Shown here: one piece after another, positions 4,944 through 31,021 of the stretch | Numbering within the stretch: the first letter of the stretch is position 1 | Layout of the letters: every line of letters starts with the position of its first letter | Source of the DNA: Haloferax volcanii DS2 | GTDB taxonomy: Archaea > Halobacteriota > Halobacteria > Halobacteriales > Haloferacaceae | Assembly: GCF_000025685.1 (NCBI RefSeq) | Contig: NC_013967.1 | Coordinates: forward strand, 540,001 to 572,000 | DNA: 32,000 bases | Reading direction: 5' to 3' | The notes under the pieces: generated by a model | What the model was told of the DNA's origin: nothing | The model's database searches: none | Seen by the model: only the letters and a program-made list of their open reading frames with translations | Made by a program: the position numbers and the translations under genes

Positions 4944-5182
4944 GTCGCTTCGAGTCGGCCGGAGGCACACCCGACCGACACGGCCGCGGAGTCGCTCCAT
5001 ACCCGAGTCAGAACAATAATTACCAAATTTCATTGATGTAATAAAAATTGACAAATTTGAGCCAGAGGAATCGACTCTATCGGAGGGGGTAAAAGAAGAA
5101 AACCCGACACATAGCCCGTAATACGCTGATATTCGGCTAACTGAATTTCGATACGCCATCAATGCGGAAGAAACTAGCATCC

Positions 5183-5221
5183 CCTATTGAATCTGCGATA
5201 ATAGGCTGTTACTGGCTTTTT
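5183..5221 (+). terminator. Hairpin (CCTATT-11 nt-AATAGG) followed by T5; terminator-like element in the AT-rich spacer
   Basis: 6-bp inverted repeat at 5183-5188/5200-5205, then TTTTT at 5217-5221 on the plus strand. It could end the MBL-2 3'UTR or a small RNA. Confidence 0.3.
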
Positions 5222-5378
5222 ATGGATGTTCACGCCCGGTCTGTGTCTGTTCGGTTCTTTCCCTTTGAATAGTCTATTTCCATATACTTTTTAGGATTAG
5301 ACAGACTATTGATTTTCAACGTATGGCCTCGATAGACCGGTCTCCATCGGGGTGCGCGACGACCCGAGCCGATGGGGT

Positions 5379-5921
5379 TCAGTTCGGGCGCGCGGCGACC
5401 GTCAGGTCCGTCCGCGACCGCGGCGTGGCGATGCGAACGTCCACGAGGACGGCGACGACGGTCGTCTCGCCCGCGCGCTCTTGGACCACGACGCCGTCGT
5501 CGGCGACGCAGGGCCCGAACTCCCGAGACGGACCGTCGGGGCAGTTCCTGAGCGCCCACCCGGAGGCCGCCGAGTCGTTCGTCGTCAACGCTACGCCGCC
5601 GGGGCGCGCGCGTTCGACGTTCGTCAGCGCGGGGTTGAGCCGCGACCGAAAGTCCGCGACTGCGGCGTCTCGCTCCGCCCAGTCGTATCGTCCCGCGACA
5701 CCCGCGGTCGCCAGTTCGACGGCGTCTTCGGTCGTCTCGACGATATCGTCCAGCGGCGGTGCCTCGGCCGTTTCGGTTACCCCGGCGAACCCGAGTTGCG
5801 CGTGGACGACGAGGAGCGTGAGCAGCGCGACGACGACGACGGCTCCGGAGACGAGCACCAACTGGCCACGGTCGTCGCCCGAGGCGGCGGCGTCGCTCGA
5901 ACCGCGGCTGAATCGGTTCAC
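5379..5921 (-). CDS. Pilin-like protein 5 with class III signal peptide (last gene of the pilus-like operon)
   Basis: The track ORF is 5379-5951. A GTG at 5919-5921 gives a GTGA overlap with the upstream stop, the same pattern as elsewhere in the operon. N-terminus ...GDDRGQLVLVSGAVVVVALLTLLV is charged, then RGQ, then a hydrophobic helix. Mature part is acidic. Confidence 0.7.
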   Translation of the reverse strand: MNRFSRGSSDAAASGDDRGQLVLVSGAVVVVALLTLLVVHAQLGFAGVTETAEAPPLDDIVETTEDAVELATAGVAGRYDWAERDAAVADFRSRLNPALTNVERARPGGVALTTNDSAASGWALRNCPDGPSREFGPCVADDGVVVQERAGETTVVAVLVDVRIATPRSRTDLTVAARPN

Positions 5922-6391
5922 GGGTACCACACCTCCAGCGTCGCGGTACAACGCGGGACCACGGCGGTCGCAGTTCTCACCCGCGCGGTCTCCGGCGGCG
6001 GTCTCCCGACCGACCCGACTTCGGTTCGGAGCGAGACGAACGCGCCGTTCGGGAGCCCCGCCGCGGCGACCTCGTGAAGCCGCGCCGCTCGGTCGTCGAA
6101 CTCCGCCGGCGACCCACAGGCCACGCCGAGAAGCGTTCCCGGTCCCTCGGCGGGGACCGACCCCACCAGCGACGCGGCGTCCGTCGCCTGCCGCGCCAGC
6201 GCGTCCGACTCGGCGGTCGGCGCGGGCGGCGCGAGCGCGAACCCCGCCGCAACGGCGAGGACGAACAGCGTCGCGACGACCGCTTCGACGACCGTCAGCG
6301 AGAGCTGTCCGCGGTCGTCCGTTCGGGTGCTGTCGGCGGCCGCGCAGTGCCGACGCAACCGCCGCGAGCGCTCTCCGCGTCGGTCACGCAT
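5918..6391 (-). CDS. Pilin-like protein 4 with class III signal peptide
   Basis: 157 aa with ATG at 6389-6391, overlapping the upstream stop by 8 nt. TDDRGQLSLTVVEAVVATLFVLAVAAGF motif. Confidence 0.7.
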   Translation of the reverse strand: MRDRRGERSRRLRRHCAAADSTRTDDRGQLSLTVVEAVVATLFVLAVAAGFALAPPAPTAESDALARQATDAASLVGSVPAEGPGTLLGVACGSPAEFDDRAARLHEVAAAGLPNGAFVSLRTEVGSVGRPPPETARVRTATAVVPRCTATLEVWYP

Positions 6392-7079
6392 CCACGGTCA
6401 CCTCGATTCGAACGACCGTCGCATCGAACGCCGTCGCTGACACGTCGACGCTCCCGGACGGCTCGTCGCCGGTGGTTTCGACGCGGACCTCGTGGTCGGG
6501 CCGGGACGATACCCCGACGACGTGTTGCCCCTCGATTCCGGCCGGTTGGTGGAGTGCGACCCTGTCGTCGACCCAAATCGTCTGCACCGTCGTGTTCGGC
6601 GCGGGATTCACGTCGAGTCGAGTGCGGTTCGTCCGCCCGGTGAGCGTCGTGTTGGGCTCCGCCGAGAGGTTAATCGACCTGCGGACGGTCCGCCGGTTGA
6701 CGCCGACCGCGCCGCGGCTAACCGTGTAGCCGCTCGACGGGTCACCCCGCTCGGCGACGGTTCGCCCGTCGATTCGGACGCGGAACGCGGCGCCGCGGAG
6801 CGGCGGGACGGCGGCGGCGAGCACGGTCGCGTTCGTCTCGTTCGCGAGCGTGAGGTCGACGGCGTCGCTTCCGTTGTCGGACCGCGTAATCGGGGATTCC
6901 GTGAGGAGCGCGTCCGCGGCGCTCTCGGCGCGGTGCTGTTCGAGCGACTCGCCGGCCGCGTCCGCGAGGACTCGGTCGGCGGCGGCGACGCCCCCGACCG
7001 TGACCGCGGTCACGAGCACGAGCGCCACCGCGAGTCCGGCGAGCGTCGTCTGTGCGCGCGCCGCGCCGTGACTACGCAT
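6384..7079 (-). CDS. Pilin-like protein 3 with class III-type signal; N-glycosylation-sequon rich
   Basis: The track ORF extends to 7169, but its first 30 codons overlap the upstream gene. ATG at 7077-7079 (MRSHGAARAQTTLAGLAVALVLVTAVTV) overlaps the upstream TAG by 8 nt (ATGCGTAG). Seven N-X-S/T sequons. Confidence 0.7.
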   Translation of the reverse strand: MRSHGAARAQTTLAGLAVALVLVTAVTVGGVAAADRVLADAAGESLEQHRAESAADALLTESPITRSDNGSDAVDLTLANETNATVLAAAVPPLRGAAFRVRIDGRTVAERGDPSSGYTVSRGAVGVNRRTVRRSINLSAEPNTTLTGRTNRTRLDVNPAPNTTVQTIWVDDRVALHQPAGIEGQHVVGVSSRPDHEVRVETTGDEPSGSVDVSATAFDATVVRIEVTVDA

Positions 7080-7650
7080 CCGCCCTCCCGTTCGCGAGTT
7101 CGAGCGTCGTCCCGTCGTCGTCATCGACCACGACGCGCACCACGCAGTCGTTGCCGCTGTCCCACGCACCCGAGACGCTCACGGAGTCGGGGAGCGTCAC
7201 CGGGAGTCGCCGGTCGAACGCGTCGTTCGGATGGTCGAGGACGAGCGCCGGTGCGGTCACGTTCGGGTCGGTCGCGAGCGTGGCGTTCGGGACGTACGCG
7301 ATTCGGTAGGAACTCCCGCGAATCGCTCGCGGAAGCGCCGCGTCGACTCGTCTGGACCCGCGGACCGCCGACTCGGGGACGACGGCGGTCGTCTCGACCT
7401 GCTCCGTCGCCGCCGCGAGCGTTCTGTCGGCGAGTTCGTGACCGACCGCGGCGCGGTGGTCGGGGACGACGCCGCCGAACAGCACCGTCGTCAAGAGTCC
7501 GACGAACAGCACGACGATTGCGGCTTCGAGCGCCTTGCCGACGACGGGGACCACGGCGCGCTCGGCGGCCCGACCGCCGGTCCCGGGCGTCACCGGTCCG
7601 GAGTCGTCGGGGGCGACCGACGACGGCTCGGACGCGTCAGCCACGGTCAA
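7072..7650 (-). CDS. Pilin-like/accessory protein 2 with an N-terminal hydrophobic helix
   Basis: 192-aa ORF. The start is TTG 7650 or GTG 7644, both overlapping the upstream stop at 7637-7639. VVGKALEAAIVVLFVGLLTTVLFGG follows an acidic/Pro-rich leader. This is the least canonical signal of the five. Confidence 0.6.
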   Translation of the reverse strand: MTVADASEPSSVAPDDSGPVTPGTGGRAAERAVVPVVGKALEAAIVVLFVGLLTTVLFGGVVPDHRAAVGHELADRTLAAATEQVETTAVVPESAVRGSRRVDAALPRAIRGSSYRIAYVPNATLATDPNVTAPALVLDHPNDAFDRRLPVTLPDSVSVSGAWDSGNDCVVRVVVDDDDGTTLELANGRADA

Positions 7651-8350
7651 TCACCACCGAAACGTCGTATCGGGCGACCGTGAGCGTCCGCTCGTCGGGG
7701 ACGGTGGCGACGACGCTCTCGGTGCCGTCGCCGTCGAAGTCGGTTCGAGTCGTGTTGAAACCGCGGCGCTCGAACGCTCGCTCCCACGCGTCGGGGGTCG
7801 CCGTCTCGACGGCGACGGCGTACCCGTCGGCCGGGCGGTCGGTCACGGTTCGCGTCGTCTGCGTTCGGAGCGCCGCACCCGACCCGAGTCCACCGCCGTC
7901 GGTGGCATCGGCGGTCAGGACGGGAACCGTGAGAAACGCCGCGTCGCCGGCGAACGCCACCGGAACGGGCGTGACGAGCGCGGCGGAATCGCCGGTGCCG
8001 CGGACGACCGCGCCGCCGACGAACGCGACCCGATGGCCGCCGAGGTCGGCGACGTACCCGTCGGCGTCGTAGGTCCTGGTCGGCCTCGTCTCCGAGGTGA
8101 TTCGGACCGTCCTGTTCACCCGCGAGAGGTCGCCGTCGGTGACGCGAACCGGGTAGCTGTCGTTCGCGGCGGCGACGACGCCGTCTCGGAACGACGAGAA
8201 GCCGTCCGCGGCGGCGTCAGCGTCCGCACTCGCTATCTGGGCGTCCACGAGTCCGCCGACGCTGGCGGTCAGGAGACCGATGGCGACGACGCCGACGCCG
8301 AGCAGGAGCGCGACGCCGACGACGTTCGCCTGGCCGCGGGTGGCGCTCAT
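7637..8350 (-). CDS. Archaeal type IV pilin-like protein 1 (Pilin_N-type N-terminus)
   Basis: The track ORF is 7637-8383. ATG at 8348-8350 forms an ATGA overlap with the pilC stop. MSATRGQANVVGVALLLGVGVVAIGLL matches the archaeal pilin N-terminal pattern (R-G-Q plus a hydrophobic helix). Three N-X-S/T sequons. Confidence 0.8.
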   Translation of the reverse strand: MSATRGQANVVGVALLLGVGVVAIGLLTASVGGLVDAQIASADADAAADGFSSFRDGVVAAANDSYPVRVTDGDLSRVNRTVRITSETRPTRTYDADGYVADLGGHRVAFVGGAVVRGTGDSAALVTPVPVAFAGDAAFLTVPVLTADATDGGGLGSGAALRTQTTRTVTDRPADGYAVAVETATPDAWERAFERRGFNTTRTDFDGDGTESVVATVPDERTLTVARYDVSVVIDRG

Positions 8351-10266
8351 ATCAGGCCCACCCCGGCGTAGACGAGGTAGCACGCGACGACGAGCGCGGC
8401 GGAGTGGAGCAACGCCTCGTACCGACCGCGGCTCGCCGTGCCGGCGAACCAGCCGGAGGCGAGCATCGTCGCCTGCGTGACGACGTACATCCGGTAGCGG
8501 TCGCGTTCGAGGTCGACCGCGCCGGCGTTGATGGCGAACGACCTGCCGGTCGAGAGCGTCGAAAGCTGGGCGAAGCCGTCGAAGACGTGGACGTTGACGG
8601 CGACGGTGATTCCGACGACGAGGAGCGCGGTCGTCCAGCCGACCGCGACGTAGACGAGCAGCCCCGAGCGGAGCGCGCGCTTTTCGTGGTAGAGGCGGCC
8701 GATTTCGGTCTGGAGCGTGTCGAAGACGGTCCCGGTATCGCTGCCGCCGTCGAGCGCGCCGACGACGAGGCCGATGGTCTGTTCGGCCATGGGCGTCCCG
8801 ACGCGGTCGACGAACCGCGCCAACGCGGCCGTCCGGAGGTTCACGTCGGTGCCGGAGCTTGGCGCGGTAAAGCGGAGGTTGAGCGCGAGGTCGGCGACGT
8901 CCGCGTCGAGCGGGCCGAGGTCAACGTCGCGGCCGACGCGCTCGACCGCCTCACCGAAGGGTCGACCGAGGTTGACGTGACCGGAGACGGCGTGGACGAA
9001 ATCCTTCAGTTCGCGGTCCTTCGCGTCGTCCAGACGGGCGCGGCGGACGCCGACGAGTCCGACCGGGGCCGCGTAGGCGACGTAGCCGGCGAGTGCGACT
9101 CCCACGGCGTCGGCACCGACGAACGCGGCGACGCCGGCCACGACGAGCCCCGAGAAGACGAAGACGGCGGCCGCGCTGGCCGGGTTCGACAGCGTCGAGT
9201 CGAGGACGCGGAGCGCGCCGGCCGGCCGGTCGTACTCGACGGACTGGTCCGGGGGTCGGAGTCCGGCGACGAGCACGCTCGCGCCCAGCCCGACGCCGAC
9301 GATGAACGCGGCGCTCGAATAGACGACGACGCCGCGCGTGGTCGTCTGGCCGAGCGGCGTGGCAACCGGCGCGGAGAGGCCGGGCGCGATGACGCTCATC
9401 ACCGTGAGGACGATGACGAGCAACGAGGGGAGGACGAGCAGGACGATGAACAGTTCGGCGAGCAGTTCGAGGAAGCCCTCGGCGCGCTCGCGGGCGCGGT
9501 CCTGTCGGTGGCCGAGCATCCGGCTCTCCATCCGCAGGTAGTTCCGGAGCGCGTCGCTGCCCTGTCCGGCGTGTTCGCGGAACTTCAGGAGAAACGGCGC
9601 GAGCATCCCCTCGGAGGGCGTGTCGCGGGCGACGCGCCGCAGGCCCTCGTTCACGTTGCCGGTCAGCGAGGCGGTGTTGAGAACGCTCCGGAAGGCGATT
9701 GCCGTCTCGCCGTAGGCGTCGGTTTCAGCGACGCGGCGGAGCATCCCGCGAGGGCCGTCGCTCCCCGACGAGAGGACGTGCAGGTAGCGGACCGCGCCGG
9801 GCAGCGTTCGCTCGATGTTCTCTCGCCGCGCGGTCGCCAGCCAGCCGAGGTACTGCCCGGCGACGGCGAGGACGACACGCCGCGTCGCGACCGCGACCGC
9901 GAGTGCGAACGCCCCGACCACCGGAAGCCGCGGAACCACGGGTATCGGGACGTGTTCGAAAAGCGGGAGCGCCGCCCGAAGAACGTCGAGTACGGCGTCG
10001 ACCGTCGAATCCGGAACCGCGAGCGCGACGAGCGCCGTCGGGAACGCGACGAACAGACCGGTCGCCCACGCGAGGCCGTAGGCGCGGGCGAGATAGAGGT
10101 CGAAGCTCATCCGCATGTCGGTGCCGCGGTAGCGGCGGCGGTCCCGGTCGTGTCGCCCGGCGTCGACGTGGCGGGCGAACAGCGCGTACAGCGCCCTGTC
10201 GAGGACCGAAAGCGAGCGGACGCGGCCGACCCGTCGCTCGTCGGCTCCGGCGTCGAACTCGGTCAC
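8347..10266 (-). CDS. pilC: Type IV pilus/archaellum-type platform membrane protein (PilC/FlaJ/TadC, T2SS-F family)
   Basis: The track gives a 949-aa ORF (8347-11196), but its first ~310 codons are Arg/Pro-rich and overlap the ATPase gene in another frame. GTG at 10264-10266 overlaps the pilB stop (GTGA) and gives 639 aa. The product has two repeated cytoplasmic-domain-plus-TM-bundle halves, typical of the family. Confidence 0.88.
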   Translation of the reverse strand: MTEFDAGADERRVGRVRSLSVLDRALYALFARHVDAGRHDRDRRRYRGTDMRMSFDLYLARAYGLAWATGLFVAFPTALVALAVPDSTVDAVLDVLRAALPLFEHVPIPVVPRLPVVGAFALAVAVATRRVVLAVAGQYLGWLATARRENIERTLPGAVRYLHVLSSGSDGPRGMLRRVAETDAYGETAIAFRSVLNTASLTGNVNEGLRRVARDTPSEGMLAPFLLKFREHAGQGSDALRNYLRMESRMLGHRQDRARERAEGFLELLAELFIVLLVLPSLLVIVLTVMSVIAPGLSAPVATPLGQTTTRGVVVYSSAAFIVGVGLGASVLVAGLRPPDQSVEYDRPAGALRVLDSTLSNPASAAAVFVFSGLVVAGVAAFVGADAVGVALAGYVAYAAPVGLVGVRRARLDDAKDRELKDFVHAVSGHVNLGRPFGEAVERVGRDVDLGPLDADVADLALNLRFTAPSSGTDVNLRTAALARFVDRVGTPMAEQTIGLVVGALDGGSDTGTVFDTLQTEIGRLYHEKRALRSGLLVYVAVGWTTALLVVGITVAVNVHVFDGFAQLSTLSTGRSFAINAGAVDLERDRYRMYVVTQATMLASGWFAGTASRGRYEALLHSAALVVACYLVYAGVGLI

Positions 10267-12629
10267 GGGTCGGCCTCGTCGTCGCGGTCGCGGTGGTGGG
10301 TGTGGTCGTCCACCCCGCCTCGGGCGGCGCTGTCTCCGTCGGCCGAATCCCGCTCGGCCATCCGCCGGCGGACGCGCTCGACCGTCGCGGCCTCGTCGGT
10401 CCGGAGGTCCGAGAGGAAGCCGAACAGCCGGTCCACGTCGGTTATCTGCTCGCGGACGAGGTACTCCACGTAGCGATGTTTTCGGTGGAACTCGCGCTCG
10501 ACGGCCTCCACGTCGCGGTCGGTGGCCTCGGCGATGCGGTGGAACAGTCGGACGCCGACGCGCCGGTGGTCGTCGCCCAGCTGCGGGTGTTCGTACGAGA
10601 GATCGAACGAGCCGTCCGGGGTCCGGCGGCCGACCGTGTTCCAGTGGAGCGTGCGCCCGTCCTTCTCGATGACGCCGCGTCGACCCCACGTTTCGTCGTA
10701 CTCGGACTCGGGGACGAGTTCGACGACCTCGGAGACGTACCGCTCGCCGTCGACTTTGTGCGGGAAGACGACGAGGTCGAGTTCGCGGAGGAGGTACGGC
10801 GGGAGCCCCTGTTCGATGACGCGGTTGACGAGCGTCTCGATGTCGGCGGCGTGGGTCGTACCGATGACGCCGTGGCCGGTGTTGAGCGTCTCGGCGAAGG
10901 TGGCGAACGACTCGGGCGTGTTGATTTCGGCGATGACCTCCACGTCGGGGTTGAGGTAGTTCGCCTCCGTCATCAGGTCGGCCATCGTGACGCGCTTGAA
11001 CTCGGACTCGTGGTCGCGGGTCGTCAACGAAACGCCCGTCTCGTGGGGGAGATGGACCTCCCGGGAGCCCTCGTCGATGCTGATGGGCCGGTGGTCGTAG
11101 GGGACGAACGGCATGTGCGCGTTCATCAGCGTGGTTTTGCCGACGCCGGTCGCGCCGGAAAAGAGGACGACGCGGTGGTGTTCGTAACAGAGCCACAGCA
11201 GCGTGACGAGTTCGGTCGAGACCGACCCGCTTTCGACGAGGTCGACCGGCGTGAGCACGTCGCCGGTCTGCTTGCGAATCGAGACGTGCGGGCCGCCCTC
11301 GGAGATGACGGGGAGGGCGACGGCGCAGCGAATCGTCTCGTCGGTGTCGGCCGACGCGGGGTCGCCGCCGACCGCGCCGGGTCGGAGGTTCACCTTCGCG
11401 CTCGGGTTCGAGGCGTTCAGCTCCACGCCGTCGGCGGCGGCGAGTTGGGTCACGACGTTCGTGAACTCGGTCTCGTCTTCGAAGACGAGGTTCGTCGGCA
11501 CCCGCAGGCCGCCGTGGCCGGTCACGTCCGCCCGCGGAATGACTTTGATTCGTTCGCCGACACGGTTCGCTTCCACGTCTTCGAGATGGGGGTCACGGAT
11601 GGGAACGGTGAGGACGCCCTCGCCGACGTAGTCGCGGAGGACGTAGTAGACGAGGTCGTCGAGACGGTCCTCGGCGAACCGGCGGTCGACCGGCGGGAGC
11701 GCGAGACCGTACTCCGAGAGCGCGGCGCGGACCCGGAAGCTCGTGGCGTCGACCCACGCTCGGGTGTTGCGGGCGGTGAGCCGCCGCGAGAGGAACTCGC
11801 GGGCCCGGTCGCGGACGAACTCGATGCGGTCGGCGACCACGTCGTTGACGTTCGCCTCCCAGATTCGCTCTTTGCACTCCTCGATGAGTTCGGCGTCGCC
11901 GGGAACCAGGTCCGGTTCGAGGACGGCGTACTTCGTGGCGAAGCGGTCGTCGCCGAGGAGTCGGTCGCGGTAGATTACCACGTCCACGTCGTAGCCGGCG
12001 AAGGGGACGGTGTAGTGGTCGATTCGCTCGGCGGCGATGCGGTCGGCGAACGACACGTCGGAGTCGAACGTCGTCGTCGCCGGCGCGAAGTCCTCGGTGT
12101 GGACGACGAGTCGCTCGGAGCCGTCGCCGCGGCCGGCGTCGACGACTTCGATTCTATCGTCGAGCGCCAGCGGTGTGACTGCACCGAGGAGCCGAAGTTC
12201 GGACAGCGCGTGGCGCTCGACGCGTCTCCGGGCGGTCGGCGTCAGGTCGAGCAGCCGGTCGAAGATACGGCGGTACTTCGGTGAGAGTCCGGTCTCTGCG
12301 CGGCTGACCGCGCCCTCGCGGGTGAGCGGTCGCCGGCGGACGACCGTCGAAAAGTGGTCGCGGACGGTCTCCAGCGCGTCGGTCTCGCGCGCGCCGAGCG
12401 TCGCTTCTCGCACCGCGTAGTCGAAACCGTGGTCCGCGTCGCTGATGGTGACGACGGTATCGGGGGCGACTTCGTACTGCGAGCGGACGGTCGGCGCGTA
12501 CCACGCGCGAGGGTCGTCCGGGGGGACGGGTGCCGGGACTGCACCTGCCGCCCCGGAAGTCGAGGATGCACCGAATTCGAGAGTCGGGGTGGGCGACTCC
12601 GACCCGGCGTTATCGCCTTGGGTAGGCAT
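10263..12629 (-). CDS. pilB: Type II/IV secretion-family ATPase (PilB/FlaI-like)
   Basis: 788 aa. Walker A FSGATGVGKTT (nt 11130-11156). Asp/Glu box NPDVEVIAEINTPES. His box TGHGVIGTTHA. Long N-terminal domain and acidic C-terminal tail. ATG at 12627-12629. Confidence 0.92.
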   Translation of the reverse strand: MPTQGDNAGSESPTPTLEFGASSTSGAAGAVPAPVPPDDPRAWYAPTVRSQYEVAPDTVVTISDADHGFDYAVREATLGARETDALETVRDHFSTVVRRRPLTREGAVSRAETGLSPKYRRIFDRLLDLTPTARRRVERHALSELRLLGAVTPLALDDRIEVVDAGRGDGSERLVVHTEDFAPATTTFDSDVSFADRIAAERIDHYTVPFAGYDVDVVIYRDRLLGDDRFATKYAVLEPDLVPGDAELIEECKERIWEANVNDVVADRIEFVRDRAREFLSRRLTARNTRAWVDATSFRVRAALSEYGLALPPVDRRFAEDRLDDLVYYVLRDYVGEGVLTVPIRDPHLEDVEANRVGERIKVIPRADVTGHGGLRVPTNLVFEDETEFTNVVTQLAAADGVELNASNPSAKVNLRPGAVGGDPASADTDETIRCAVALPVISEGGPHVSIRKQTGDVLTPVDLVESGSVSTELVTLLWLCYEHHRVVLFSGATGVGKTTLMNAHMPFVPYDHRPISIDEGSREVHLPHETGVSLTTRDHESEFKRVTMADLMTEANYLNPDVEVIAEINTPESFATFAETLNTGHGVIGTTHAADIETLVNRVIEQGLPPYLLRELDLVVFPHKVDGERYVSEVVELVPESEYDETWGRRGVIEKDGRTLHWNTVGRRTPDGSFDLSYEHPQLGDDHRRVGVRLFHRIAEATDRDVEAVEREFHRKHRYVEYLVREQITDVDRLFGFLSDLRTDEAATVERVRRRMAERDSADGDSAARGGVDDHTHHRDRDDEADP

Positions 12630-12653
12630 ATACCGTGCTTTGCTGAGTATTCG

Positions 12654-12660
12654 TATTTAA
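12654..12660 (-). promoter_or_regulatory. TATA-like box TTAAATA for the pilB-led operon
   Basis: Lies 25-31 nt upstream of the pilB ATG on the minus strand. It is the only obvious promoter element for the seven overlapping genes. Confidence 0.5.
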
Positions 12661-12696
12661 GAATTTACTGCGTCGTGGCACAGAGATGAAGTTTTA

Positions 12697-12742
12697 TGGA
12701 ATCGAATATCTCGGCGGTTTCCGGCGCTCTCCGTCGATTCCA
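12697..12742. repeat. 9-bp perfect inverted repeat TGGAATCGA ... TCGATTCCA (28-nt spacer) upstream of the pil promoter
   Basis: Arms at 12697-12705 and 12734-12742. A related TGGAATCTCGG lies at 12807-12817. Candidate operator or structured element, or part of the 3' end of the kinase transcript. Confidence 0.4.
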
Positions 12743-12850
12743 GCGTTTCGAATCCCGCGATACCAGTTGGTTAATTGACTTGTCTCAGCGAGTGTAGTTA
12801 TCAAAATTGGAATCTCGGTCGGGTGGAGTCTGGGTGCTCTCGGACTCGGA

Positions 12851-14638
12851 TCACTCGCTTCGAACCGCCTGGATGCGAAGCACCACTTCGGTCCCGCCCT
12901 CCTCGCGGCGATGGAACACGACCGTCCCGCCGAGCTGGTCGACGCCCCACTTCACCAGCCAGAGGCCGAGGCCGCTCGCGTGTCGAAGTTGCGTCTCGCC
13001 GTGGGCGTCGATGGCGGCGAGTTCGCTCGCGTTGATGCCGGGGCCGTTGTCCTCGATTCGAATCACGAGTTCGTCGTCCTCCCAGCCCGCCGTCACGGAG
13101 ACGACCGGCGTCGACGACCCGTTGTGTTGGACGCCGTTTTCGACGAGTTCGCGGACGATTGGTTCGAGCGTGGGCGCACAGACCACGTCGCGGTCGGGGA
13201 GTTCGACGAGTCGGACGTTCGCACAGGCGAAGTCGGTGCGGACGGCGTCCGCGGCGGCGCGTATCTGGACGGCCGCGGGGTGCAGTTGCACGTCGCCGTT
13301 CCCGTCGCTGCCGCGGGTCACACCGAGCTTTCGCGCTTTCTGGCTGATGTTGACGAGCGTTTTCGCGTGGTCTTGGAGCGTCTTCGCGTGGTCCCGCGCG
13401 TCGTCGAACTCGCCGCCGTCGATGTCGTCCAAGACGAGGTTGGCGTAGCCTTCGAGGAGGTTCGCTTCGGTCCGAAGATTGTGGCGGAGGACGCGGTTCA
13501 TCACTTCGAGCTGTTGGAGGTTCAGCCGGCGGTCGGTCACGTCGCGGAAGACGAGCGCGTGGCCGATGTCGCGGCCGTGGTGGTCGCAGAAGGCGCTCGT
13601 CCGGAGTTCGAAGTACCGCTGGCTCGACCCGAGTCTGACCGTGACTTGGTCCGTGTCCCGCTGGTCGGGCGAGAACTCATCGATAACGTCGCCGACGGGG
13701 CGGCCTTTGAGCTCGTCCGCGGTGTCGTTCAGAACCCGCGCGGCCGCCCGGTTCACGTCGGTGACGCGCCACTTGGTGTCGGTGACGACCACCGCGTCGG
13801 CCATCGTCTCGACGACGCGCTCGCGGGCGACCCAGCGGGGGACCGGTCGGGATTCGAGGAGCTCGTAGCGGCTGATAGCGACGGTGCAGGCGAGCCCCGC
13901 AAACGTGAACGCCGCGGGCGTCATGTCGATTGCCGCGCCGTACAGTTCGAGGAGCGTCGTGGCGAAGTTCCCGAGCACGGGCATCAGCGTCCCGAGGACG
14001 AGCGTGATCGCCTGTAACCGGTAGATGTCCGGCATATCGAGCGCCGTTCGGAGGATAACGACCGCGCCAGCGAGCCACAGCAGATAGCTGTATCCCAGTA
14101 CGACCCAGTACAGCGGCCCCCACTCCATCTGGAGGATGGTGATGGCCCGGCCGACCGCGGGAACGACGGTGACTGACGTCCACATCAGGTGGTGGAGAGA
14201 GTTGGTCCAGACGGCGCCGAGGCCGATTACCGGGAGCACCGAGAGGACGCAAAGCGACGGCCGAGCGGTGAATCGGTCCCGGCCGGCGTAGGAGAACGCG
14301 AAGAAGAACCAGGCGATGGGTGCCACGAGCACGCCGACCCACTGGAGGTCAGCGAGCGTGAGCTTGAGTGCCACGTCCGCGACGATGAGTTCGAGGAGGT
14401 AGCCCGACGACCACCACCCGCTGGCGAGGGCGAGCACGCCCAGCCCGATAGCCCCGGGCATCGACCGCCGTTGCCACGCGAACAGGGCGACGTAGCCGCT
14501 TACGACGCCGGACGTGACCATCAGCCCGATGATGATGACCACGAGGGAAACCGGCTGCGTGAGTAGCTGGGGACCGACCGCACCTCCGAACACCAACTGT
14601 TCGACGGCCCTCCACTCGATGTTCGGAGTCACTACCAC
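12851..14638 (-). CDS. Membrane sensor histidine kinase (N-terminal 7TM sensor, PAS, HisKA-like H-box, HATPase_c)
   Basis: 595 aa. Seven hydrophobic segments in the first ~215 aa. PAS region (VVVTDTKWRVTDVNRAAARVL...). H-box NRVLRHNLRTEAN. ATP-binding motifs ELVENGVQHN, DNGPGI, GLGLWLVKW. The start is GTG 14636-14638; a downstream start is possible because a TATA-like TATAATTA (minus strand) abuts it. Confidence 0.88.
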   Translation of the reverse strand: MVVTPNIEWRAVEQLVFGGAVGPQLLTQPVSLVVIIIGLMVTSGVVSGYVALFAWQRRSMPGAIGLGVLALASGWWSSGYLLELIVADVALKLTLADLQWVGVLVAPIAWFFFAFSYAGRDRFTARPSLCVLSVLPVIGLGAVWTNSLHHLMWTSVTVVPAVGRAITILQMEWGPLYWVVLGYSYLLWLAGAVVILRTALDMPDIYRLQAITLVLGTLMPVLGNFATTLLELYGAAIDMTPAAFTFAGLACTVAISRYELLESRPVPRWVARERVVETMADAVVVTDTKWRVTDVNRAAARVLNDTADELKGRPVGDVIDEFSPDQRDTDQVTVRLGSSQRYFELRTSAFCDHHGRDIGHALVFRDVTDRRLNLQQLEVMNRVLRHNLRTEANLLEGYANLVLDDIDGGEFDDARDHAKTLQDHAKTLVNISQKARKLGVTRGSDGNGDVQLHPAAVQIRAAADAVRTDFACANVRLVELPDRDVVCAPTLEPIVRELVENGVQHNGSSTPVVSVTAGWEDDELVIRIEDNGPGINASELAAIDAHGETQLRHASGLGLWLVKWGVDQLGGTVVFHRREEGGTEVVLRIQAVRSE

Positions 14639-29202: not shown

Positions 29203-30429
29203 TCAGGCGGCCTCGGCCTGCGTCGCGGTCTTCCGAATCTCGTCGAGGACCGAGTCGAGAGCGAGCACGTCGGACAGCGCCTCCATCGCGCTGGAGAACG
29301 GCACGTCGAGCGCGTAGCTGTAATAGTTCCCGCGCGAACCGGTTCGGTTCTCCTCGGCCGAGAGGATGCCGAGCATCCGGAGGTCCGAGAGGTGGTTGTG
29401 GACCGACCGCTGGGCGAGCGGGTCGATGCCGGCGGAGTTACACAGTCGGAGGTACTCCTGATAGAGGTCGCGCATCCGACACGGCGTCTCGTCGTGGGCG
29501 GCCTTCGAGACGACCGCGAGGAGGGCGAAGTGGCCGTTTTCGGTGAGTTCGCGCATCCCCTCGACGACGCGCTCCTGTTCGAGTTTCTGCCGGGCGATGT
29601 CGACGTGGTCGAGCGTGATTCGCTCGTCGTCTTTGTTCTCGGCGTGTTCGCCCGCCAGCCGCAGGAGGTCGAGCGCCTGCCGCGCGCTCCCGCTGTCGCG
29701 GGCGGCGAGCGCCGCACAGAGGTTGAGCACGCCCTCCTCGCAGGCGTCTTCTGCGATGGCGACCTCAGCGCGCGATTCGAGGATGTTCTGGAGCTCAGGC
29801 GCTTGGTACGGCGGGAAGTGGAGTTCGCGCTCGCAGAGCGTGTCCTGCACGCGCGGGTCGAGTTGGTCGTGGAACTTGAAGTCGTTCGAGATGCCGATGA
29901 GGCCGACCTTGGCGTCTTCGAGCTTGCCGTTCGAGCGCGCCCGCGGGAGTTCGTAGAGGAGCTCGTCGCGGTCGCCGATGGAGTCGACTTCGTCGAGGAC
30001 GATGAGCACCGTCCCGCCCACGTCGTCCAACTCCTGAAACAACTTCTTGAAGACGGTCTGTTGGGGGTAGCCGGTCGAGCTAATCACCGCACCGGGCGGC
30101 CGAAGCTCGTTGACGAGTTCGACCGCCACCTGATACGAGGAGTTGAGCGTCTTGCAGTTGATGGAGATGACGCTGAGGTCCACGTCGTCGTACTGCGAGA
30201 CATCTTCGAGGAGCATTTCCAGAAGGAACTCGGTGACTGCGGTCTTCCCCACGCCGGTGTTTCCGTACAGGAAGACGTTGTTCGGCTCCCAGCCGTCGAC
30301 GACCGGTTGGAGCGCGTCCATGTACTCCGAAATCTCGTCGTCGCGCTCCTCGATGCGCTCGGGCTTGTAGGACTCCCCGAGGGCGTCCTTGTTGGTGAAG
30401 ACGTTTTGTTTTCGCTCGAACCGGCGCAT
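29203..30429 (-). CDS. orc1: Orc1/Cdc6 family replication initiator
   Basis: 408 aa. AAA+ Walker A GNTGVGKTA and Walker B LIVLDEVD. Typical N-terminus (FTNKDALGESYKPERIEERDDEI) and a C-terminal winged-helix region (NHLSDLRMLGIL). Confidence 0.93.
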   Translation of the reverse strand: MRRFERKQNVFTNKDALGESYKPERIEERDDEISEYMDALQPVVDGWEPNNVFLYGNTGVGKTAVTEFLLEMLLEDVSQYDDVDLSVISINCKTLNSSYQVAVELVNELRPPGAVISSTGYPQQTVFKKLFQELDDVGGTVLIVLDEVDSIGDRDELLYELPRARSNGKLEDAKVGLIGISNDFKFHDQLDPRVQDTLCERELHFPPYQAPELQNILESRAEVAIAEDACEEGVLNLCAALAARDSGSARQALDLLRLAGEHAENKDDERITLDHVDIARQKLEQERVVEGMRELTENGHFALLAVVSKAAHDETPCRMRDLYQEYLRLCNSAGIDPLAQRSVHNHLSDLRMLGILSAEENRTGSRGNYYSYALDVPFSSAMEALSDVLALDSVLDEIRKTATQAEAA

Positions 30430-30455
30430 TAGCGTCGGTCCGTTGTAGCGTCCCC

Positions 30456-30465
30456 TTATTTAAAA
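30456..30465 (-). promoter_or_regulatory. TATA-like box TTTTAAATAA for orc1
   Basis: 27-36 nt upstream of ATG 30429 on the minus strand. Confidence 0.5.
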
Positions 30466-30620
30466 CCCCGATTTCATCTGATTCATGTGAATTGTGACGA
30501 CGACGGTGTCGCCGGAGTCAGACCGCGTGTTCTCGTCTGGAACCGCCGTCTCTCGGTTGATGCTTGCTCACCCTATACTGTCCCATGTTATTGTATTTCG
30601 TGGGTCATGTGAACTCGTTT

Positions 30621-30650
30621 GAACAGACACACACCATGTTTGCAAGTGAA
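30621..30650 (-). repeat. ORB-like repeat, inverted copy (TTCACTTGCAAACATGGTGTGTGTCTGTTC)
   Basis: Matches the copy at 30958-30984 at 22 of the first 23 positions. Confidence 0.7.
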
Positions 30651-30790
30651 AGAGAGTACGCGAGAGTAGCTAGTAGAACAACAGAGCATGTGTTCAACTA
30701 AAGCGTTGACATATTTCGGTGCTCACGGTGTACGTCTCGGTGGGATGCGTCTCCCGTTAACGAGGCGTAGACGGCCTCAATCGGAGTGAA

Positions 30791-30812
30791 TCACCTGCAA
30801 TGGTGGTGGGTG
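30791..30812 (+). repeat. ORB-like repeat R1 (TCACCTGCAATGGTGGTGGGTG)
   Basis: Shares the core and G-string with R3 and R4. The first T of the core is replaced. Confidence 0.6.
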
Positions 30813-30836
30813 ACGCGCGACGAGTCCCGTTCGAGG

Positions 30837-30855
30837 TTCACTTGCACCGGTGCTC
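30837..30855 (+). repeat. ORB-like repeat R2, degenerate (TTCACTTGCACCGGTGCTC)
   Basis: The core TTCACTTGCA is conserved; the G-string is lost. Confidence 0.45.
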
Positions 30856-30901
30856 TCCCCGCGCAGTCGCCGGTCCCACCCCCTCCGCGGCGTCACCGCG
30901 C

Positions 30902-30930
30902 TTCACGTGCAACGGTGGTGTCTGTGGGTA
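30902..30930 (+). repeat. ORB-like repeat R3 (TTCACGTGCAACGGTGGTGTCTGTGGGTA)
   Basis: Core plus G/T-string. Confidence 0.65.
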
Positions 30931-30957
30931 CGCCGCGACCCATCGCTTCCCCGCCAA

Positions 30958-30984
30958 TTCACTTGCAAACGTGGTGTGTGGGTG
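30958..30984 (+). repeat. ORB-like repeat R4 (TTCACTTGCAAACGTGGTGTGTGGGTG)
   Basis: Best copy; mirror of 30621-30650. Confidence 0.7.
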
Positions 30985-31021
30985 TCGGACCGCGGCTTTC
31001 GCGTTCCGCCGCGGCGACCCA

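Follow-up and report, generated by a model that had tools for sequence, protein, structure and literature searches.

The pilB1 operon of Haloferax volcanii: a conserved seven-gene type IV pilus-like locus encoding five dissimilar pilin-like proteins

The stretch of DNA analysed here (the window) comprises 32,000 nucleotides of the Haloferax volcanii DS2 genome (NC_013967.1, positions 540,001 to 572,000) and contains seven open reading frames (ORFs) that all lie on the minus strand, run from 12629 down to 5379 and overlap at every junction. These genes are the H. volcanii pilB1 operon, i.e. hvo_0620 (pilB1), hvo_0619 (pilC1) and hvo_0618 to hvo_0614, and encode an assembly ATPase, a membrane platform and five pilin-like proteins. 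The arrangement had been proposed from the DNA sequence by an earlier, model-generated reading (the original prediction), and all of its ORFs and junctions were recovered when the sequence was read directly. The genes are listed below by window coordinates, with the predicted prepilin peptidase cut marked by an arrow and the E-value given after each domain family.

10263-12629, minus strand: pilB1 (hvo_0620), 788 amino acids (aa), assembly ATPase of the FlaI/VirB11/TadA type
8347-10266, minus strand: pilC1 (hvo_0619), 639 aa, GTG start, polytopic membrane platform of the TadC/FlaJ type
7637-8350, minus strand: hvo_0618, 237 aa, DUF7289 (3.9e-60), predicted cleavage R5-G6↓Q7
7072-7650, minus strand: hvo_0617, 190-192 aa, DUF7266 (2e-46), likely cleavage R31-A32↓V33
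6384-7079, minus strand: hvo_0616, 231 aa, DUF7263 (4.6e-63), predicted cleavage R8-A9↓Q10
5918-6391, minus strand: hvo_0615, 157 aa, DUF7262 (1e-36), predicted cleavage R27-G28↓Q29
5379-5921, minus strand: hvo_0614, 180 aa, DUF7261 (1.7e-55), predicted cleavage R18-G19↓Q20, last gene of the operon

The junctions and the only promoter-like element were likewise read from the sequence.

12660-12655, minus strand: TATA-like box TTAAAT, at -31 to -26 relative to the pilB1 start (A of ATG)
10266-10263, minus strand: pilB1/pilC1 junction, GTGA, 4-nt overlap
8350-8347, minus strand: pilC1/hvo_0618 junction, ATGA
7650-7637, minus strand: hvo_0618/hvo_0617 junction, start codon TTG 7650 or GTG 7644 against the TGA stop at 7639-7637
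7079-7072, minus strand: hvo_0617/hvo_0616 junction, ATGCGTAG
6391-6384, minus strand: hvo_0616/hvo_0615 junction, ATGCGTGA
5921-5918, minus strand: hvo_0615/hvo_0614 junction, GTGA

The TTAAAT box is the sole minus-strand TTWWWW hexamer between 5200 and 12800, in agreement with the single TATA-like box that had been predicted upstream of pilB, and the 7.25-kb operon is free of runs of six A/T bases. Its spacing to the pilB1 ATG suggests that the operon transcript is leaderless or near-leaderless. At the other end, the ~200 bp downstream of hvo_0614 (5180-5378) have an unusually high AT content compared with the genome, including several 10-base windows with 8 or more A/T at 5217-5310, and begin with a 7-bp inverted repeat read by eye (CCATCGG at 5375-5369 and CCGATGG at 5350-5344); this is possibly the terminator region of the operon. 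Elsewhere in the window the GC content falls to 0.578 at 30001-31000, compared with about 0.66-0.72 in the remainder.

Identification of the locus with the published pilB1 operon follows from the exact placement of five deletion and expression primers described for hvo_0620 and hvo_0619 (PMC6491452), the cores of which each match the window once, with zero mismatches and at the expected places.

13255-13269: upstream flanking primer, ~630 bp upstream of the pilB1 start
12627-12647: overlap primer
12615-12629: pilB1 start-codon primer
8350-8364: primer at the end of hvo_0619 (pilC1)
7741-7757: downstream flanking primer, ~600 bp downstream of the pilC1 stop

Both flanks are given as about 700 bp in the source (PMC6491452). 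The operon described by Legerme & Pohlschroder 2019 (PMC6491452) is thus the same DNA, and the 4-nt overlaps between pilB1 and pilC1 and between pilC1 and hvo_0618 are as described there. The flanking genes also agree with the hvo numbering, with a UspA-domain protein (HVO_0612) and an MBL-fold protein downstream and a sensor kinase (HVO_0621) upstream. The locus is therefore already known: it carries a published name, its class has been catalogued as subclade 4C, an adhesion defect has been reported for its mutants and Pfam families exist for its products. The original prediction, which implied an unstudied locus of unknown function, was mistaken on this point. It corresponds to a characterised pilus locus as far as the operon and its assembly genes are concerned, but the correspondence does not extend to the five individual pilins. 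In the main texts searched, the locus tags of the five pilin genes are present only in PMC6491452; a literature search on the DUF names of the five families found nothing, and the HVO identifiers had no match in the glycoproteomics and ArcPP supplements searched as text.

The two machinery genes have the domain content expected of a PilB/PilC-type pilus-like operon, as had been proposed. PilB1 matches Pfam T2SSE (2.8e-18) and the NCBIfam models FlaI (2.1e-42) and TadA (2.8e-28), but the latter two scores are far below the equivalog cut-offs, which marks PilB1 as a paralogue and not the archaellum motor. Its closest solved relatives are Archaeoglobus fulgidus GspE2 (2oap, 1.5e-30), the Tad ATPase CpaF and FlaI, and its nearest named relatives are proteins of other Haloferax species with 86-90% identity. 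PilC1 matches T2SSF (5.2e-14) in two stretches, i.e. two T2SSF repeats. The plasmid-borne paralogue pilB2 was sought in a plasmid collection with zero matches, although that collection probably lacks haloarchaeal plasmids.

Each of the five remaining products begins with a class III signal, i.e. a short charged leader, [KR]-[GA] at positions -2/-1 and ~20 hydrophobic residues, and the signal is conserved in families of 50-102 homologues. All five proteins matched their DUF families in the hidden Markov model searches that the original prediction had recommended, whereas matches to Pfam Pilin_N were weak and confined to HVO_0618 and HVO_0617. An R-[AG]-Q motif is found in at least 49 of the 51-53 orthologues of HVO_0618, HVO_0616 and HVO_0614; family by family, it occurs in 100/102 homologues of HVO_0618 (DUF7289) and 52/53 orthologues of HVO_0616 (DUF7263), and takes the form RGQ in 51/52 orthologues of HVO_0614 (DUF7261). 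HVO_0615 also carries RGQ, and R-[AG]-Q is common in DUF7262. Cleavage motifs are therefore present in all five proteins as predicted, but in HVO_0617 the site had probably been misplaced. The DUF7266 family shares the conserved block D-[DE]-R31-[AG]32-V-x-P-V-V-G-K39-A-L-E42, in which R31 is retained in 86/91 sequences and A or G occupies position 32 (-1) in 86/91, while the invariant K39 is followed by A in just 71/91, with T or L among the rest. Since, in addition, the Pilin_N alignment of HVO_0617 starts from residue 31, the PibD site of HVO_0617 is likely to be R31-A32↓V33, eight residues upstream of the K39-A40↓L41 first suggested. The start of the same gene can also be refined. The overlap with hvo_0618 had been given as 8-14 nt; it is real, but GTG 7644, which leaves 8 nt, is the more likely start, because 8 nt is the commonest overlap among the orthologues and the closest homologues in the database have a length of 190 aa.

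That the five substrates are mutually dissimilar is borne out by profile-profile comparison. In an all-against-all hhalign analysis the five families were alike in the N-terminal segment alone, the best pair being HVO_0618 and HVO_0617 (74% probability, columns 3-61). A common origin of the five head domains was considered and set aside, as head homology was undetectable at the sequence level by the same method. AlphaFold models of the two proteins modelled show the build of a pilin, with a β-rich head on a long N-terminal helix: HVO_0618 (predicted local distance difference test score, pLDDT, 92.7) is predicted to form a 53-residue helix (7-59) followed by a large β-rich domain (65-235), and HVO_0617 (pLDDT 84.6) two helices (37-58 and 63-89), with a break at the invariant P63, and then a seven-strand β head. 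The weak Foldseek matches of the HVO_0617 model are immunoglobulin/fibronectin type III-like. Sequence searches of the PDB with three of the pilins and two family profiles returned nothing significant; the profile searches gave weak, non-significant N-terminal matches to the solved archaeal pilins 8gi2 (E=0.14) and 8fj5.

N-X-S/T sequons number 3, 2, 7, 0 and 1 in HVO_0618, HVO_0617, HVO_0616, HVO_0615 and HVO_0614, respectively, exactly as had been counted before. Four families are enriched in sequons, which occur 2.9- to 3.6-fold above shuffle expectation. DUF7262, the family of HVO_0615, has 0.62 times the shuffle expectation, and 46/53 orthologues are without a sequon. HVO_0615 may consequently be buried in the assembly or otherwise not exposed, judging from this pattern.

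Conservation of the locus was assessed by a PilB1 scan of one genome per species, which returned 80 loci, all from Halobacteria; gene order was counted in the 69 of these with at least 5.2 kb of sequence downstream of pilB. Every named homologue of PilB1, HVO_0617 and HVO_0618 likewise comes from Halobacteria or from hypersaline metagenomes. The synteny comparison advised in the original prediction gave a clear result, with the exact order pilB, pilC, DUF7289, DUF7266, DUF7263, DUF7262, DUF7261 kept on one strand in 55/69 haloarchaeal loci. In two further loci, from Haladaptatus and Halorussus, pilB is separated from pilC by a 4-kb insertion, beyond which the set is unchanged. In Haladaptatus pallidirubidus (10249-14358 of its locus, L017) this ~4-kb insertion encodes two large proteins, one with a twin-arginine-like leader (RRHFLSATG), and is followed by pilC and the first three pilin genes, after which the sequence examined ends; in Halorussus aquaticus pilC is displaced by a similar distance, and the same layout is deduced from the position of the pilC match. 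Four loci, three from Halorubrum and one from an unclassified Halobacteriota metagenome-assembled genome (MAG), have pilB and pilC without downstream pilins, and four others, two from Haloplanus and two from MAGs, have an orphan pilB without pilC. Such loci indicate that the machinery and pilin modules can separate, which fits modular exchange. Salinirarus marinus (NZ_CP132292.1) has two copies of the locus, at 20850-39120 and 2852738-2871008, near both ends of the chromosome record; they have identical match coordinates and percent identity, and could reflect either a genuine duplication or a circular overlap left un-trimmed in the assembly.

The overlaps themselves are also conserved. Overlaps of 1-25 nt were counted in 52 complete orthologous loci and, with the junctions named after the H. 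volcanii genes, were found at pilB1/pilC1 in 42/52, pilC1/hvo_0618 in 49/52 (4 nt in 47), hvo_0618/hvo_0617 in 47/52 (8 or 4 nt in 45), hvo_0617/hvo_0616 in 49/52 (4 nt in 37), hvo_0616/hvo_0615 in 49/52 (8 nt in 39) and hvo_0615/hvo_0614 in 50/52 (4 nt in 48, GTGA in H. volcanii). Because they are kept across these orthologous loci, the overlaps are not due to chance. The flanking genes, meanwhile, are conserved within Haloferax alone. Among them HVO_0621 (12851-14638, minus strand), a sensor kinase with HisKA_7TM, PAS and HATPase domains, lies ~220 nt upstream of the operon on the same strand; it was considered as a dedicated regulator of the operon and rejected, as it adjoins the operon in Haloferax species only. 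In a conditioned-medium proteome, HVO_0621 was slightly up (log2 +0.70) while PilB1 was down.

The preferred reading, with a probability of roughly 0.75, is that the machine encoded by the pilB1 operon is type IV pilus-like, depends on PibD and has a part in surface adhesion. Under this model a single, probably leaderless mRNA would start about 26-31 nt downstream of TTAAAT and its seven cistrons would be translated in a coupled way. The prepilin peptidase PibD would act from elsewhere in the genome, presumably from HVO_2993, which we take to be pibD and to lie far from this locus, and would remove the short charged leaders after R-[GA]. Action of the peptidase in trans had been predicted and agrees with the description of a single PibD as processing all H. 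volcanii pilins (PMC7771232), although the other ORFs of the window were not scanned for a peptidase domain. The PilB1 ATPase, working on the PilC1 platform, would then raise the mature pilins out of the membrane, and a surface fibre would result, with their hydrophobic N-terminal helices packed in its core. The shaft would, to judge by other type IV filaments, consist of one subunit, for which HVO_0617 (arCOG06296) is the candidate of the literature, and the remaining four would serve in priming, capping or decoration. Four or more of the pilins would be exposed and probably N-glycosylated, in view of their sequon enrichment, and the resulting PilB1 fibre would contribute to adhesion of the cell to surfaces.

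Published genetics provide the functional part of this reading. Both pilB1::tn and ΔpilB1-C1 strains have an intermediate adhesion defect, observed for ΔpilB1-C1 as lower adhesion to plastic in semi-defined medium, and the ΔpilB1-C1 defect is rescued in trans by pilB1-C1 and also by pilB3-C3 (Legerme & Pohlschroder 2019, PMC6491452). The ΔpilB1C1 strain still makes immersed liquid biofilms. In the conditioned-medium proteome (mBio 2025 tables), PilB1 falls by log2 -2.65 to -3.05, and PilC1 and HVO_0616 were quantified too.

Several observations weigh against the preferred reading. In its adhesion the ΔpilB1-C1 ΔpilB3-C3 double mutant resembles ΔpilB3-C3 (PMC6491452), which leaves an independent PilB1 fibre undemonstrated, and the ΔpilB3-C3 strain, in which the pilB1 operon is retained, is described as being without surface pili. 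The literature searched contained no report of a PilB1-C1-dependent filament, and its main texts none of deletion, tagging or PibD cleavage of HVO_0614 to HVO_0618. Foldseek comparison of the HVO_0617 and HVO_0618 models with the PDB gave no match at E <= 0.001 and template modelling (TM) scores of at most 0.27. HVO_0616, the only one of the five pilins in the proteome table, was considered as the major subunit on the strength of being the sole quantified pilin; this was dropped, since more observable tryptic peptides come from it than from any of the other four.

The genetic data could instead mean that the five proteins belong with the PilA1-6 pili built by PilB3-C3, which they would enter or prime as minor or accessory pilins, with PilB1-C1 merely aiding their insertion and building no separate fibre. 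The full rescue of ΔpilB1-C1 by pilB3-C3 in trans is what this would predict, as are the failure of pilB1-C1 to rescue ΔpilB3-C3 (PMC6491452) and the epistasis of pilB3-C3 implied by the double mutant. The PilA-type N-terminus of HVO_0617 (R-A-V-x-P-V-V-G) and the Halorubrum and Haloplanus genomes in which a pilB(-pilC) of this clade has no adjacent pilin set point in the same direction. The epistasis, however, may be a floor effect of the adhesion assay, and the rescue came from constitutive overexpression (PMC6491452). Moreover, the 55/69 loci in which the five genes stay joined by overlaps to their own ATPase and platform argue for a dedicated machine. An accessory role in PilA pili is thus regarded as very improbable, and a separate type IV pilus-like machine remains the preferred interpretation.

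A second alternative, which the original prediction had favoured, is that the five proteins form a short pseudopilus or tip/priming complex of fixed composition, comparable to GspG-K or ComGC-GG. The main job of such a complex would not be abiotic adhesion but secretion, surface-protein display, cell-cell contact or DNA uptake, and the adhesion defect would be indirect. The argument offered for it, i.e. that five dissimilar and coupled substrates favour a pseudopilus over a pilus, does not discriminate, because in true pili, just as in type II secretion systems (T2SS) and competence pili, a major pilin and about four minor ones are encoded together. The ComG, T2SS and bacterial type IV pilus operons all follow this pattern of adjacent pilin genes, and in the ComG/T2SS analogy an ATPase, a platform and five pilin-like proteins are contiguous while the peptidase is encoded elsewhere. 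The conserved ATPase-platform-five-pilin layout with its overlapping genes is compatible with a pseudopilus, as are five unrelated heads, which would be expected for distinct structural roles, but the same layout is normal for true pili. Furthermore, the ATPase and platform here are of archaeal/Tad type, and the likeness to ComG and T2SS is one of gene count and layout alone; the pilin heads matched no pseudopilin (GspG-K, ComGC-GG) in sequence or fold in the PDB sequence and Foldseek searches, and no secretion, secretin-like or DNA-handling gene lies in the operon flanks within the window, where no secreted substrate is linked either.

Other evidence lends the pseudopilus some weight. The adhesion defect is merely intermediate, no PilB1-dependent pili are visible on ΔpilB3-C3 cells, HVO_0615 is consistently sequon-free, as if buried, and other specialised functions have been suggested for PilB1/C1 by the authors of PMC12240190. 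On the other hand, adhesion is the only measured phenotype, and it is rescued by the bona fide pilus machinery PilB3-C3. On balance a pseudopilus is considered unlikely. The corresponding proposal for the group as a whole, that subclade 4C machines build a short five-component complex in which HVO_0615 is buried and the other four proteins are glycosylated and exposed, with a role in cell-cell contact, secretion or DNA transfer, is speculative and has a low chance of being correct. If true, it would account for the failure to observe a fibre that depends on PilB1. The adhesive type IV pilus-like machine is retained as the preferred reading.

As a rediscovery of a named operon in a model archaeon, the finding itself adds little. 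New here are statistics on conservation, a revised cleavage site and a likely start codon for HVO_0617, two models without a solved structural match and the sequon pattern. The corrected HVO_0617 site, the strictly kept gene overlaps and the sequon-free HVO_0615 are testable handles, and the conserved layout of a machine joined to five pilin-like genes makes the operon a convenient, genetically tractable system for the priming of archaeal type IV filaments. Another question it could help to answer is how euryarchaeal pilins are handled by an ATPase and platform that are apparently of crenarchaeal type.

Within H. volcanii the closest comparison is with PilB3-C3 and PilA1-6 (clade 2), which likewise form PibD-dependent adhesion type IV pili. 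PilB3-C3 can replace PilB1-C1, although PilB1-C1 cannot stand in for PilB3-C3, and HVO_0617 shares the PilA-like N-terminus. The organisation differs: pilB3-C3 is a two-gene operon with its pilins scattered in the genome, whereas in the pilB1 operon five unrelated pilins are joined to the machinery genes. PilA1-6 are, in addition, close paralogues with an identical hydrophobic domain, unlike HVO_0614 to HVO_0618.

The equivalent locus in Halobacterium salinarum R1 is pil-2 (OE1347R to OE1332R), which consists of seven co-transcribed ORFs spanning 6.9 kb, is found only in haloarchaea and includes a pilB2 gene that adherent cells induce (Losensky et al. 2015, PMC4292770). Like the H. volcanii operon it begins with an ATPase and a platform gene (pilB2 and pilC2) and has FlaFind-positive prepilins; orthology of the two is taken from PMC4858521. 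FlaFind 1.2 called only three of the pil-2 ORFs prepilins (PMC4292770), compared with the five pilin-like proteins of H. volcanii. In the same study the gene deleted was pilB1 (OE2215R, of a clade 2 locus) and pil-2 was shown just to be co-transcribed and induced, which bears on section 12 of PMC4858521.

The class as a whole was catalogued under the name "subclade 4C" by Makarova, Koonin & Albers 2016 (PMC4858521), who described a type IV pilus system specific to Halobacteria in which an ATPase/TadC pair, thought to be crenarchaeal in origin, is joined to euryarchaeal-type pilins, with arCOG02911 as the signature minor pilin and arCOG06296 as the hypothesised major pilin. PilB1 and PilB2 of H. 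volcanii were placed in clade 4C, clade 4 being the TACK-type clade (PMC6491452, PMC6098224). In the available part of PMC4858521, the Haloarcula hispanica table gives an ATPase, arCOG01810 (TadC), arCOG02911 (~241 aa), arCOG06296 (~148 aa), arCOG03933 (~234 aa) and arCOG04680, and arCOG04679 is given as a further subclade 4C pilin family. The first four pilins given there agree in order and in protein size with those of the H. volcanii operon. When mapped by gene order, protein sizes and Pfam DUF families, the H. volcanii pilins correspond by position as follows.

7637-8350, minus strand: hvo_0618, arCOG02911
7072-7650, minus strand: hvo_0617, arCOG06296
6384-7079, minus strand: hvo_0616, arCOG03933
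5918-6391, minus strand: hvo_0615, arCOG04680

The last gene, hvo_0614, is probably arCOG04679, the remaining subclade 4C pilin family in that part of the source. The pilB1 operon of H. volcanii is accordingly a member of the halobacteria-specific subclade 4C systems.

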